In this document: piece by piece, positions 58,799-64,000 of the stretch
Numbering within the stretch: the first letter of the stretch is position 1
Layout of the letters: each line of letters begins with the position of its first letter
Source: Candidatus Bathyarchaeota archaeon
GTDB taxonomy: Archaea; Thermoproteota; Bathyarchaeia; Bathyarchaeales; Bathycorpusculaceae
Direction: 5' to 3'
Assembly (NCBI GenBank): GCA_963832745.1
Contig: CAWHVC010000001.1
Location: forward strand, 256,001 to 320,000
Length of the DNA stretch: 64,000 nt
Notes under the pieces: model-generated
The model's input: only the letters and a program-made list of their open reading frames with translations
Told to the model about the DNA's origin: nothing
Databases searched by the model: none
Translations under genes and position numbers: made by a program

Positions 58799-61327
58799 TT
58801 ATTTCTTTCTGAGGATCAACAGACCAACAATTGCAACTACTGCAATAATTGCAATACCCATACCGATTGTGTACATTTCGTATGGTGTGTTTGCAATTTG
58901 TGTTGGTGTTGCTGTTGGTTGTGCTGCTGCGACTGTCATTGCATTTTGTGCGTATGAGCTGTAGTATGCTGCTGAGCCTGCGAATGTTGCATAGATTGTG
59001 TATTGTCCGTCAGTTGTTGGGGTAAATTCAAATGCGAAGTGACCGCTTGCATCGCTTGTTGTGTCACCGAGGTGTACTGGGTTACCGTTTGGATCAGTTG
59101 CATCGATTGAGATTGCGACACCTGTTGCGCTCATTGGTTGTGAGAATTGCTTGTATACGTAAAGCATCCATTCGCTTTGGTATTGGTCTGCAACGACTGG
59201 AACACCGTTCGGGAATCTTAATTGTAGTGCGTCACTTGAAACGCCTGGTGAGTTGTCCATGATTGTTCCTTTAAGCATAACTGCTGTGTTTGCTGCAACT
59301 GCTGTATCTGGTGCTGTAAGTGTCATTGTGCTTGGACCTTTGCCGATTGCATAGATTTGTTGGTCGTATGTGTCCATTGTTGCGATGATGCTGTCACCGA
59401 TGAGTGCGCGTCCACCCCATCTTGTTTGGCGGAATAGACCATTTGCTCTCCAGACCATTGCGCCTGTTTCTGCATCAAGTGCAAAGAACGGTGCGCCTCT
59501 TGGTTTAGGATCAAGTGCAGAGTGCTCTAAGCTACCAAAGTAAATCTTACCGTCTGAAACGAATAGTGGCATGATCCACCAGTTGTTTGTTAGGTATGAT
59601 TCGTGGTATGGGTCGTTTGCTGTTACGTTCCATTTGAGGTTGCCTGTGTTGATGTCATAGCAGTATACGATACCGCCGACGGTTGCTGAGTATAGGTTGT
59701 GGTATGCAATAACACGGTCAGGACCGAATGATGCTAGTACTGTGTCACTCCATGCGTCTGCATAGACTTGTGGTGCTGTCTTCCAAAGGTATGTACCGTT
59801 TGAAAGGCTGTATGCATAGTGAACTCTGTTTTCTTTTGACCAGAAGATTGCAACATTGTCCTCTTGACTCCATTGTGCCCAGCCTGCTTGGCCGATGCTG
59901 CTAATGGTTATGCTGCCTGTTCTCCATTCAGTTGGTGCTGGATTTGCAGTGTTGAATAATAATGCGCCTTCATGGCCTGTAGCTAAGCTGAATGCCCATA
60001 ATTGAACAGTGTCGTATGATACGCTGGCTAGAATTACTTTGTCACCGACGTATGCTTTTTGGATTGTTGTGTTGCCTGTTGCTGGGAATGTTCCGGCTGC
60101 TGCTGTGTTGTATGCTGGAATTGAAACGTTCAAGTCGTATCCGCGTGCTGTTGCATCGTAGGATACACCTTGGACTTGGCTACCCCAGCTTTCTGACATG
60201 CCGACTTTGCCTTTAGTTACAACATAGCTTGAGTTCCATTGTAGTAATCTGTAATCTGGGTTTGTTGAGTTTCCGTAGTTAACGATTGAGTATTTCATGA
60301 TTTCGCCGTTTGGACCGATGTAGTTGGTTCCGCCTGGTACGTTGGTCATGTTGTATCTCAAGATACCGCTTTCAGCGTCTACACCATACCAGGTGGTACC
60401 GCTAACTAGCCATATGTATGAGAATGCACCACGGTTGTTTAGACAGTCCCAGTATAGGGTTTGTCCGATGGATATTCTACCACCGCCGAAGCCATAGTTG
60501 TTTTCCCACAGAGTTTTGCCTGTGTGTAGGTCAACTGCAACGATTGTTTGTGTTGGTGCGTTGCTGACATATCTGTTATAGTATAGAACGCCGCTAATTA
60601 TGACTGAACCTGAGAATTTGCCTTCATAAGCGTCACCGTTCTGGTAACCGTGGTCGCCAGTGTCGCCGCCTACTAGACCGCCGTTAGTGTCGCCAATTGG
60701 CATAGTCCAAAGAATGTGTGCTGTTTCTGGTGCATCATTGTATGGTGCATATAGATTTTCTGGTCTTGTTGTCCAGCTGCCAGAGATTGACCACCATTCA
60801 CGAAGTTGTGAATCAATTGGTCTTGTCCAGTATTCAGTTGGAAGTGATTGACCCGGATAGGTTGGAACTGCGTCTTGTTGTACAGTTAGGTTTAGAACTT
60901 CGCTGTCAGCTGCGCCATAGAGTCCGCCCATTTGAGTGCCGTAAGAATTGAATGTATAGTTAGTTTCTGGGAAGTGACATTGTAACTGGTAAGTGCCGAC
61001 TTTCTCTGGTGTAAAGTATTGACCGACTGTGCCGGTTGACCATGTTTTCAGTGGACCGATTGTTGTAACTTGTCCGTCTGGATCAGTGATTGTACATGTG
61101 ACGTTCCAGCCATCACCGTCAGCGGCCAGATAGTTTAGGAGACCGAAGTTAACCAAAACTTTTTGACCGACGCCGACTGGGTTTGGAATTGCGTCAACAA
61201 ATGGATAAGCTGTGATTGTGTCTGCTGCAGTAACAGTGTTTGGCAATGCAAACATTGAGACAGTAAATGACAATACCATCAATATTGCGAGTGTTGAAAG
61301 TACAGTTTTACTTTTAAAATTTTTCAA
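58799..61327 (-). CDS. Large secreted PQQ-like beta-propeller surface protein with Ig-like termini
   Basis: Signal peptide; PNPVGVGQ; LPTEYWTRPI; repeated (A/C)(V/Y)D..TG...W blades; DQQIYAIGKGPS; C-terminal TM plus RKK. Confidence 0.88.
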   Translation of the reverse strand: MKNFKSKTVLSTLAILMVLSFTVSMFALPNTVTAADTITAYPFVDAIPNPVGVGQKVLVNFGLLNYLAADGDGWNVTCTITDPDGQVTTIGPLKTWSTGTVGQYFTPEKVGTYQLQCHFPETNYTFNSYGTQMGGLYGAADSEVLNLTVQQDAVPTYPGQSLPTEYWTRPIDSQLREWWSISGSWTTRPENLYAPYNDAPETAHILWTMPIGDTNGGLVGGDTGDHGYQNGDAYEGKFSGSVIISGVLYYNRYVSNAPTQTIVAVDLHTGKTLWENNYGFGGGRISIGQTLYWDCLNNRGAFSYIWLVSGTTWYGVDAESGILRYNMTNVPGGTNYIGPNGEIMKYSIVNYGNSTNPDYRLLQWNSSYVVTKGKVGMSESWGSQVQGVSYDATARGYDLNVSIPAYNTAAAGTFPATGNTTIQKAYVGDKVILASVSYDTVQLWAFSLATGHEGALLFNTANPAPTEWRTGSITISSIGQAGWAQWSQEDNVAIFWSKENRVHYAYSLSNGTYLWKTAPQVYADAWSDTVLASFGPDRVIAYHNLYSATVGGIVYCYDINTGNLKWNVTANDPYHESYLTNNWWIMPLFVSDGKIYFGSLEHSALDPKPRGAPFFALDAETGAMVWRANGLFRQTRWGGRALIGDSIIATMDTYDQQIYAIGKGPSTMTLTAPDTAVAANTAVMLKGTIMDNSPGVSSDALQLRFPNGVPVVADQYQSEWMLYVYKQFSQPMSATGVAISIDATDPNGNPVHLGDTTSDASGHFAFEFTPTTDGQYTIYATFAGSAAYYSSYAQNAMTVAAAQPTATPTQIANTPYEMYTIGMGIAIIAVVAIVGLLILRKK

Positions 61328-62633: not shown

Positions 62634-62718
62634 GCCGGGATGGCAGAGTGGTTAACGCGCGGGCCTTGAGAGCCCGTGGATCATCCGGTCCGCATGGGTT
62701 CGAATCCCATTCCCGGCG
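62634..62718 (+). tRNA. tRNA-Ser(TGA)
   Basis: GCCGGGA...TCCCGGC-G; anticodon arm CGGGC-CTTGAGA-GCCCG; long variable arm; GGTTCGAATCC. Confidence 0.96.
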
Positions 62719-62736
62719 CCTAATTGTTCCAAACAA

Positions 62737-63258
62737 TTAATGTTTTTGTTGCTTTATCTTCTGTGTTAAAGCCAAAAGCCCCTTGATTATTTCTTTGGGA
62801 TTAGGAGGATTGCCAGGGATTTTTAGATCAACACTAAAAACTTTATCTGCACAGCCCAATACAGCGTAAGATTCGTTAAGGATTCCCGTTCCACATGCAT
62901 CGTCGCCGACTGCTACCACAAATTTGGGGTTTGGCATGGCGTCGTAGGTTTTTTTGACAGCGATTTCCATATTACGGGTGATTGCTCCAGTTACAATGAG
63001 AACGTCTGCGTGTCTTGGCGAGGCAACAAAGGTGATGCCGAAACGTTCAACGTCGTAATATGGCGTGGAAAGATTGTTTAGTTCGATTTCTGTGGCGTTG
63101 TCGCTTCCGCTATCGAGTTCACGGATTGCAAGGCTTTTACCGATGCAGCGGTCAACGTGACGTTTGAGTTCTATTCCTAAGGCTTCAAATTCGGCGTCTC
63201 GGAAAAGGATTGGTTCAGTTTTTTTCTTTTTGAAGACGACGGTTAAGTTTTTTGCCAT
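62737..63258 (-). CDS. NuoB/HycG-like small subunit of an Ehr (energy-converting hydrogenase-related) complex, Fe-S cysteines absent
   Basis: YDVERFGITFVASPRHADVLIVTGAITRNM...TYDAMPNPK.VVAVG signature, but GSDNATE, GDDA and PGNPP replace the Cys motifs. Confidence 0.9.
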   Translation of the reverse strand: MAKNLTVVFKKKKTEPILFRDAEFEALGIELKRHVDRCIGKSLAIRELDSGSDNATEIELNNLSTPYYDVERFGITFVASPRHADVLIVTGAITRNMEIAVKKTYDAMPNPKFVVAVGDDACGTGILNESYAVLGCADKVFSVDLKIPGNPPNPKEIIKGLLALTQKIKQQKH

Positions 63259-63270
63259 GTCATGTTTCTC

Positions 63271-64000
63271 CTATAGGTCGGTTCCAGCATAGGATAAGTT
63301 CATGCTTTTGTTGATTAATGGAAAATCGGGCACGATGTTGCCCAATACAGCGTGTTCGATGGCTTGCCAGTTGCAGAAAGATGCTGTTCTAACTTTATAA
63401 CGGTCGATTACACCGTTTTTTATGTACACCCAATGGATACTTTGGCCACGAGCACATTCAACCAACGCTAAAGCATACCCGTCACACATCTGATGCGCCG
63501 TCAAAACTTCACCAACTTTTAGGTGATTAATCAAATCCTGAATCATCTTTACCGAGTCAAGGGTTTCTTGCGCTTTTAGCTCGAATCTGGAAAGCACATC
63601 GCCATTTTGCTGTGTTCGGCCTTTGAGGTTCATTTCGCCGTAGAGTCCATAGGGGTGATTTATGCGGGTGTCTATCATCCGTCCTGATGCCCTTGCGATT
63701 GGACCTGTAATGTGCAGGGGTGCAAGCAGTTCTGGTTTTACTATGCCTGTTGTTTCAAAGCGGTCGATTAAAGAAAAGTACGTGTTGTCGAGTTCTTTTG
63801 CGGTTTTCAGGCGTTTGCAAAAGCCATGCAGGTATGTATTGAGGTTTTTGAGGGTCTGTTCAGGAACATCTTTGGTTAACCCACCGATAGTAATGATACC
63901 CTTTAGGAACCTTGAGCCGGTAAGTGCCTCATTAAACCGCAATATTTCTTCTCGAAGGATAAAGAATGAGCTAGCACCAGCTGGGTAAGCTACATCCACT
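63271..64000 (-). CDS. NuoD/HycE-like large subunit of the Ehr complex (3' part; 5' end outside the window)
   Basis: GPIARASG, GDVLSR, ECARG, RYKVRTASFCNW, DFPLINKSMNLSYAGTDL; no C-terminal DPCxxC. Confidence 0.9.
   Translation of the reverse strand, partial: VDVAYPAGASSFFILREEILRFNEALTGSRFLKGIITIGGLTKDVPEQTLKNLNTYLHGFCKRLKTAKELDNTYFSLIDRFETTGIVKPELLAPLHITGPIARASGRMIDTRINHPYGLYGEMNLKGRTQQNGDVLSRFELKAQETLDSVKMIQDLINHLKVGEVLTAHQMCDGYALALVECARGQSIHWVYIKNGVIDRYKVRTASFCNWQAIEHAVLGNIVPDFPLINKSMNLSYAGTDL

Follow-up and report, generated by a model that had tools for sequence, protein, structure and literature searches.

Clade-wide loss of the last cofactor site in an Ehr-type complex of Bathyarchaeia

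The DNA analysed here, called the window throughout, is a stretch of 64,000 nucleotides from a Candidatus Bathyarchaeota archaeon (assembly GCA_963832745.1, contig CAWHVC010000001.1, positions 256,001 to 320,000; G000:C1:256001-320000 in our numbering). Its last part and an adjoining stretch of 20 kb (L001) carry the operon of an Ehr-type complex, in which the NuoB/HycG-type small subunit, EhrS, has lost all four cysteines that ligate the proximal [4Fe-4S] cluster in its relatives. This loss is real and not a product of chance. Taken together, the genes specify an intact, selected six-subunit complex without a canonical NiFe site, proximal [4Fe-4S] site or ferredoxin-type site. The novelty would accordingly not be the Ehr family, which is known and functionally unsolved, but a variant of it in which the last cofactor site has been lost across a whole clade.

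Replacement of the cluster cysteines in the small subunit

The ehrS gene (62737..63258, minus strand) encodes a protein of 173 residues, which was identified from its open reading frame (ORF), profile matches, alignments to PDB chains and an AlphaFold2 model. It matches the Pfam family PF01058 (Oxidored_q6, the 20 kDa subunit of NADH:ubiquinone oxidoreductase) with an E-value of 2.2e-24 and 86.1 bits against a cut-off of 27, and it passes the NCBIfam model NF005012 for NuoB-subfamily proteins (123.4 bits, threshold 116). The AlphaFold2 model, built on a 52-row alignment, has a mean predicted local distance difference test (pLDDT) score of 91.8 and a predicted template modelling score (pTM) of 0.83, with values above 90 for pLDDT in the segments that carry the replaced residues. 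In Foldseek comparisons it matches MbhJ (6cfw_J) with a target-normalised template modelling (TM) score of 0.88 and a root-mean-square deviation of 2.1 Å over 137 columns, and its further matches include the PSST chains of complex I. The confident model and these matches together indicate that the fold of EhrS is intact.

The four N2-ligating cysteines of complex I NuoB are absent from this scaffold: in the phmmer alignment with the PSST chains, GDDA of EhrS lies opposite GSCA and PGNPP opposite PGCPP. Read on the minus strand, the codon GAC at 63100..63102 specifies D53 in place of the first cluster cysteine and the codon ACA at 63091..63093 specifies T56 in place of the second, turning GSCNGC into GSDNAT. 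The codons GAC GAT GCA TGT at 62893..62904 specify D119, D120, A121 and C122, of which D120 replaces the third cysteine, and AAT at 62809..62811 specifies N150 in place of the fourth (PGCPP to PGNPP). Hence the sites at which four proximal-cluster cysteines are the common state among Ehr relatives are occupied here by D53, T56, D120 and N150. A joint alignment with the canonical small subunit of the same genome, which belongs to an Hfo-type hydrogenase described below, places D, T, D, C and N of EhrS against C in each of the five corresponding columns. A sequence-only reading of the window had proposed that all four cysteines are replaced, by the codons GAC, ACA, GAT and AAT, and both the alignments and the codons bear this out. 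To reach any of the replacement codons from TGY (TGT/TGC), two or more substitutions are needed, and so none can be put down to a single-base error.

A word-indexed search with EhrS recovered 5606 relatives at E ≤1e-5, and residues were counted in the best 120 of these, which are 71-100% identical to the query; several carry Bathyarchaeia names from their sources. The cysteines are replaced throughout these closest homologues, and what replaces them is strongly conserved. D53 and C122 each occur in 120/120 sequences, D119 in 118/120 and D120 in 119/120, while N150 is N in 119/120 and D in the remaining one. With 118-120 of 120 homologues in agreement at each of these sites, chance can be dismissed. 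Overall, 67 of the 173 positions are conserved at a level of at least 98%. Position 56 is variable in the clade (T in 80, A in 23, V in 16 and I in 1 of the homologues), and the conserved D-x-x-T/D/N motif suggested earlier must therefore be redrawn as D / DD(C) / N.

C122 is the sole invariant cysteine of the small subunit. Standing two residues after the third site, it had been considered a possible shifted ligand, an idea that we reject because its equivalent is also found in the Hfo small subunit of the same genome (GACAC) and in many relatives that retain all four ligands (CCCC). It is an inherited, ancestral non-ligand cysteine.

Architecture of the operon

The product of the large-subunit gene, ehrL, is devoid of NiFe ligands. 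Its 3' part (residues 286-527) occupies 63271..64000 of the window on the minus strand, and the full gene for 527 residues (L001:1271-2854) extends beyond the window edge to G000:C1:320854. The product is a fused NuoC-NuoD protein of the HycE type, homologous to the large subunits of group 4 [NiFe] hydrogenases and to NuoD: it matches PF00346 (49 kDa/NuoD), PF00329 and, weakly, PF00374, and among PDB chains its best match is Escherichia coli HycE (7z0s_E, E 6.2e-64), with MbhL also matching (1.4e-34). In the HycE alignment the L1 segment RVCGICGFAH faces ETISGDETVAN, such that C, C and H become S, E and N, and the L2 segment DPCYSCTD faces NLSYAGTD, such that both cysteines become S and G. EhrL thus lacks all four NiFe cysteines, which are S, E, S and G here, together with the L1 histidine. 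Where group 4 enzymes carry the motifs C[GS][ILV]C[AGNS]xxH (L1) and [DE][PL]Cx[AGST]Cx[DE][RL] (L2), as given in excerpts from PMC7886697, EhrL has ISGDETVAN and NLSYAGTDL. The earlier observation that the large subunit ends in NLSYAGTDL without DPCxxC therefore holds, and L1 is gone as well.

Four further genes lie on the same strand: 1) ehrA (L001:6010-7950), a NuoL/HyfB/HycC-like protein of 646 residues with Proton_antipo_M and Proton_antipo_N domains (NF006418, 870 bits against a cut-off of 794; HycC, 2.3e-64). 2) ehrB (L001:5072-6025), a NuoH/HycD-like protein of 317 residues (PF00146 NADHdh; HycD, 4.4e-41). 3) ehrC (L001:4331-5071), a protein of 246 residues that resembles HyfE through a match to NF008556 below its cut-off. 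4) ehrD (L001:2862-4334), a HyfF/MbhH-like protein of 490 residues (Proton_antipo_M; NF006427, 576 bits against 511; MbhH, 9.8e-35). The order is ehrA-ehrB-ehrC-ehrD-ehrL-ehrS, with junctions of -16, 0, -4, +7 and +12 nucleotides, and all six ORFs are intact in this genome. EhrA and EhrD keep the conserved glutamate of transmembrane helix 5, the lysine of helix 7 and later lysine motifs, and EhrB keeps the acidic loop motifs common to HycD and MbhM.

This gene set, devoid of NuoE, NuoF and NuoG and with a large subunit that has lost the L1 and L2 cysteines, has the ehrABCDLS architecture and specifies an Ehr-type complex, in agreement with the initial assignment; the HyfB/C/E/F-like subunits expected upstream are present, and there is no ferredoxin-like subunit in the operon. 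No match to NuoA, NuoI, NuoJ or NuoK was found among the six genes, which hence do not make up the core set of complex I. Furthermore, the ferredoxin-type motif CxxCxxCxxxC is missing from every reading frame of the operon, both in this genome and in nine congeneric copies, and from the seven other loci whose small subunits share the D-x-D-C-N pattern. The complex is built like a group 4 membrane hydrogenase or formate hydrogenlyase, but with no NiFe site, proximal [4Fe-4S] site or ferredoxin-like subunit it cannot pass electrons along by the canonical route.

The losses are specific to the Ehr copy. A search of the genome with PF01058 yielded three genes: ehrS, one in an Hfo-type operon of 11 subunits (G000:C1:123793-133234), and one in a Hox-type group 3 cluster on contig C4. 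Both paralogues keep their cysteines; the Hfo small subunit is canonical (SGACNGCDIE, GACACSGG, PGCPP), and its large subunit displays RVCGICNGPH and DPCFSC. The organism thus makes Fe-S and NiFe enzymes of this superfamily. Within the Hfo operon (G000:C1:128370-131913, outside the window), the NuoL-like and NuoM-like genes are broken into three and two ORFs, respectively, reflecting either assembly frameshift errors or real decay.

Distribution, purifying selection and the question of decay

Orthologues of EhrL (65-82% identity) are found in 9 of 36 congeneric genomes. With the same query, none was found in 24 genomes of other families of the order, where the weaker matches are Hfo-like. In seven of the nine congeners the operon is complete, with six intact genes; in one it is truncated by the end of a contig, and in one it is broken. 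The last of these (L119, G023:C5:297200-316600) has ehrA, ehrD and ehrL in pieces in a genome that is 86% complete, a state that could stem from decay or from an assembly error.

All six genes are under purifying selection. By the Nei-Gojobori method, the median ratio of nonsynonymous to synonymous differences per site (pN/pS) among the congeneric copies is 0.19-0.26 for each gene, and for the closest pair (G000 and G008) the rate ratio omega is 0.05-0.09 for all six, cap included; synonymous sites are near saturation between the genomes compared (pS 0.6-0.8), so that the omega values are rough, yet they remain far from neutrality. The soluble cap formed by EhrL and EhrS is as constrained as the membrane subunits. 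A search of sequencing runs with the whole operon listed no run, and so no RNA data set, that carries it.

These data bear on the least likely explanation, namely that the operon is a decaying hydrogenase relic or that the cysteine losses are sequencing or assembly artefacts. The broken copy in G023 and the split NuoL/M-like genes in the Hfo operon of the same assembly do indicate that frameshift errors or decay occur in such genomes. However, the Ehr operon is free of breaks of the kind seen in the Hfo operon, its six ORFs are intact here and in 7/9 congeneric copies, with one more truncated only where its contig stops, and every gene, including those of the upstream subunits for which neutral decay had been raised, has a pN/pS far below 1. 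Moreover, 118-120 of 120 homologues, drawn from many sources, carry the same replacements, each of which needs at least two substitutions. We therefore assign this explanation a negligible probability and regard it as refuted for practical purposes.

Cysteine loss in the wider Ehr family

To place the loss in a broader context, two surveys can be drawn upon. In the first, phmmer was run exhaustively against 1.84 billion cluster representatives and found 5891 matches; of the best 150, in which cysteine states were scored, 92 have all four cysteines, whereas 21, like the query, retain no more than one and are free of gaps at the four sites. The second, which took one genome per species, delivered 80 named loci, using patterns derived from 7 closer sequences, as a broad alignment of 17 sequences had no sufficiently conserved stretch. 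Nearly all of these loci share the same gene set, most in the order A-B-C-D-L-S and 13 with the small-subunit gene first. The small subunit is CCCC in 62/80, and most or all cluster cysteines are missing in 18/80, a figure that overstates the cysteine-less share because one of the two patterns picks up that form only. Among the 62 CCCC loci, the large subunit lacks the NiFe cysteines in 58, is of the true NiFe type in 1 and is absent from the locus in 3. The premise that Ehr small subunits normally keep their cluster thus stands. The picture of an exceptional loss stands only in part: the cysteine-less form is a minority state among related loci, but it is not unique to this clade.

The cysteine-poor loci fall into three sets. 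Set (a), L005-L011, shares the D-x-D-C-N pattern of EhrS and comes from two Methanosarcina genomes, metagenome-assembled genomes (MAGs) labelled Methanosarcinales and Methanomicrobiales, Dehalococcoidales, Dehalogenimonas and Moduliflexus; one of the Methanosarcina genomes (L009) is the complete genome of a cultured isolate. Set (b) comprises ten loci (L014, L015, L026, L035, L036, L041, L043, L052, L058 and L061) from the candidate phyla radiation (CPR)/Patescibacteria, Bdellovibrionales, a Syntrophus-labelled MAG and others, all in the order S-A-B-C-D-L, an order also seen in the cysteine-replete L027, L039 and L074. Set (c) is a single Chloroflexota locus.

In a quick IQ-TREE reconstruction of the large subunit (73 rows), set (a) and the present locus form one branch with a Shimodaira-Hasegawa-like approximate likelihood ratio (SH-aLRT) support of 100. 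Parsimony on this tree requires 4 changes of cysteine state, of which well-supported branches force at least 3, and the small-subunit cysteines were thus lost in at least three independent Ehr lineages. The clade that includes the present operon spans Bathyarchaeia, Methanosarcina, Dehalococcoidia and Moduliflexus, and within it the trait appears to have arisen once and to have since been exchanged among anaerobic archaea and bacteria. Across the 39 cysteine-poor small subunits, 32 carry at least two (two or three) Asp or Glu residues at the four former ligand positions, against a background of 10.4% for both residues together.

Certain members of the wider family show different combinations of sites. 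The Chloroflexota MAG locus L066:5734-9414 encodes a large subunit with all four NiFe cysteines alongside a small subunit that has E, C, E and D at the cluster positions and an N-terminal ferredoxin-like motif; if the ORFs were picked correctly, this would be a hydrogenase-type active site without a proximal cluster. Two representative proteins, P0212 and P0143, are cysteine-less small subunits with an N-terminal ferredoxin-like CxxCxxC...CP segment, which implies that a HycF-HycG fusion occurs in lineages without the NuoB-type cluster.

As for gene neighbourhoods, Pfam searches of 43 flanking proteins from 13 clade loci and 3 from the present locus revealed no conserved neighbours. In particular, no formate dehydrogenase, NuoE/F, ferredoxin or maturation genes are conserved beside the operon in the 14 clade loci. 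A scan of 8 of 15 clade loci at the Rfam gathering thresholds found only tRNAs.

Comparison with characterized systems

The Ehr (Ech-related or energy-converting-hydrogenase-related) family was reportedly named in papers by Coppi in 2005 and by Marreiros et al. in 2013. The name ehrABCDLS and the gene order in Geobacter sulfurreducens and Methanospirillum hungatei are documented in excerpts from PMC7894505 and PMC4704411. The present operon agrees with both in its A-B-C-D-L-S order, and with Ehr in general in that its large subunit derives from group 4 hydrogenases, lacks the L1/L2 cysteines and is not accompanied by a NuoI/HycF-type subunit. It differs from other Ehr in that the small subunit, too, is without the four proximal-cluster cysteines, the comparison being with the related loci surveyed above (62/80 CCCC). 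Ehr is characterised in the available passages of the literature by the missing large-subunit cysteines only, and its function is called unknown or redox-linked (PMC10284858, PMC4378227, PMC6349859, PMC7304191, PMC4758237, PMC5037454, PMC7894505, PMC4704411). No statement on the small-subunit cysteines was found in these passages, the two naming papers lying outside that scope. The main-text passages of Jaffe et al. 2020 likewise mention the large-subunit cysteines only; Fig. S6b and the supplements of that paper, outside the same scope, may bear on the point. Hints at function in the literature excerpts include the greater abundance of Geobacter Ehr subunits on formate (PMC7894505), a proposed complex of formate dehydrogenase with Ehr in Margulisbacteria (PMC6349859), and the listing of ehrABCDLS in the M. 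hungatei genome paper among enzymes likely to reduce ferredoxin (PMC4704411).

Among systems of solved structure, formate hydrogenlyase and hydrogenases 3 and 4 of E. coli (HycC, HycD, HycE and HycG; PDB 7Z0S) provide the best match for 4 of the 6 Ehr subunits, and the membrane part and soluble core of the former share the gene order of the operon. In contrast, formate hydrogenlyase has a NiFe site, the HycG cluster, the HycF and HycB ferredoxins and a formate dehydrogenase, none of which is present here. In the membrane-bound hydrogenase of Pyrococcus furiosus (PDB 6CFW), MbhJ resembles the EhrS model in fold, MbhH is the best match for EhrD, and MbhM and MbhL match as well; unlike the present operon, that enzyme possesses three [4Fe-4S] clusters, a NiFe site and an Mrp-type Na+ module. 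Hfo, an 11-subunit group 4g [NiFe] hydrogenase of Bathyarchaeia (Loh et al. 2021, excerpts from PMC7886697), is represented in the same genome with homologous small, large, NuoH-like and NuoL/M/N-like subunits, whereas it keeps its NiFe and Fe-S cysteines, includes NuoA/I/J/K-like subunits and has a large subunit that is only about 29% identical to EhrL.

The Mrp antiporters (PDB 6Z16, 7QRU) present a different kind of likeness. MrpA and MrpD match EhrA and EhrD, and Mrp, as the sole well-established redox-free member of the superfamily, would be the best functional analogue of the complex. Mrp lacks NuoH-, NuoB-, NuoC- and NuoD-like subunits and has MrpB, MrpE, MrpF and MrpG, which are missing from the operon; of the MrpA-G set it contains only the MrpA/D-like modules. 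The MNHE subunit of Mrp (PF01899) was not found in this genome, which is 99% complete, nor in the 60 relatives searched along with it (0/61 in all), so that a contrast of Ehr and Mrp as complementary systems cannot be drawn from them. Antiporter-like genes of this genome occur only in Hfo and Ehr, and given the absence of MNHE these two hold its only antiporter-like modules.

Functional readings

With neither an electron path nor a conserved partner, secondary ion exchange of the Mrp kind would be the energetically simplest job for such a complex, and the equal constraint on cap and membrane part suggests that the cap is a working part and not a remnant. The reading that we favour as a whole, with slightly better than even confidence, is therefore a redox-independent, ion-translocating Ehr variant, that is, an Mrp-like cation/proton exchanger with the L/S cap as its switch. 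The cytoplasmic cap would be essential, plugging the NuoH-like channel of EhrB and acting as its switch. The buried pocket that once held the cluster would be lined by D53, D119, D120 and N150, with C122 nearby, and may supply a negative charge, open to protonation or cation binding, that takes over from the anionic Fe-S cluster and determines the state of the coupling loops. With its four thiolates, a [4Fe-4S] cluster is anionic; that two or three carboxylates have repeatedly taken its place suggests that negative charge is what has been conserved in the buried pocket. Of the original functional suggestion, which offered metal-free gating or binding of a different metal, the architecture free of redox sites agrees with the sequence evidence, and the function itself is plausible.

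A bolder version, which we entertain as a possibility and no further, makes the carboxylate cluster (D53, D119 and D120, with N150 and C122) an electrostatic trigger, in which protonation or cation binding takes the place of reduction in driving or gating ion translocation, and supposes that several Ehr lineages reached this state independently by way of Asp and Glu.

Several considerations weigh against the favoured exchanger. The omega values are rough, as synonymous divergence is saturated between the genomes compared. The equal constraint on cap and membrane part is at least as compatible with catalysis or ligand binding in the cap as with a plug. The 39 cysteine-poor sequences are mutually related, such that the carboxylate pattern counts lineages and not sequences. 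The pocket, with its Asp, Asn and single invariant Cys, might still hold a metal, and excerpts of the published work on other Ehr operons point to a redox or formate link (PMC7894505, PMC6349859, PMC4704411).

The last two points lead to a rival that we deem rather unlikely, in which the former cluster pocket binds another metal centre (mononuclear Fe, Zn or Mn, or an unusual Asp/Cys-ligated cluster) and the complex carries out redox or metal chemistry with a partner encoded elsewhere, such as a formate dehydrogenase or a ferredoxin. The invariance or near-invariance of D53, D119, D120, C122 and N150 would suit such a site, as would the convergence of independent lineages on Asp, Glu, Asn and Ser at the former ligand positions, the strong constraint on the cap and the formate links of other Ehr operons just cited. 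Yet position 56 varies, C122 is shared with cysteine-replete relatives, no second centre is evident that could take electrons onward (there are neither NiFe ligands nor a ferredoxin motif), and no redox partner is conserved beside the 14 clade loci. Nor, to our knowledge, has any [4Fe-4S] cluster been described whose ligands are one Cys and carboxylates.

The constraint on the cap equally invites a second rival, that of a gradient-driven, non-redox enzyme in which a vectorial reaction at the L/S cap would draw its energy from ions flowing through the antiporter-like subunits. Its analogues would be the NuoL-like DabB, which acts with DabA, and the CO2-hydrating CupA on cyanobacterial NDH-1. 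Such a role would be consistent with a cap conserved as much as the membrane arm, with the conserved polar motif S-G-D-E at the former NiFe site and with the accessory, patchy occurrence of the operon (9/36 congeners, 0/24 genomes of other families of the order). Nevertheless, neither a catalytic domain nor a neighbour related to a substrate could be recognised among the operon proteins and the flanks of the 14 loci. We hold this rival to be improbable, and return to the Mrp-like exchanger as the favoured reading.

Significance for complex I relatives and for annotation

The central question for complex I and its hydrogenase relatives is how a change of charge at the last Fe-S cluster or active site leads to ion pumping. 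A conserved variant that retains the full coupling architecture (NuoH-like channel, antiporter-like subunits and NuoB/C/D-like cap) with no redox centre would be a clean test system for it, and could reveal the role of the cap apart from electron carriage. The same clade is present in a cultured Methanosarcina isolate (L009), which makes experiments feasible. There are also consequences for annotation, where the usual names for such genes are NuoB, Ni,Fe-hydrogenase III small subunit or hydrogenase membrane subunit. When metabolism is reconstructed for Bathyarchaeia, methanogens and Dehalococcoidia, they are counted as hydrogenases or ferredoxin reducers (e.g. PMC4704411), and in the canonical sense the complexes of this clade cannot be either.

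Neighbouring genes

Directly upstream of ehrA and on the same strand (L001:8357-9844, equivalent to 70357-71844 in window numbering and thus outside the window) are genes for a GNAT acetyltransferase (PF18014/PF00583) and an acetate-channel-like protein of the GPR1/FUN34/YaaH family. GNAT genes of differing types are found upstream in 4 of the 14 clade loci. On the other side, a tRNA-Ser gene with the anticodon TGA (62634-62720, plus strand) lies 16 nucleotides past the ehrS stop, on the opposite strand, and the closest congener, G008, has a tRNA at the same place by its own ehrS (L115:5390-5474). Further along, 58799-61327 on the minus strand encodes a predicted secreted or membrane-anchored protein of 842 residues that is unrelated to the ehr genes; its homologues among congener neighbours (L115:1631-4186, L120:3447-6017) match PQQ_2 beta-propeller and Filamin/Big domains.

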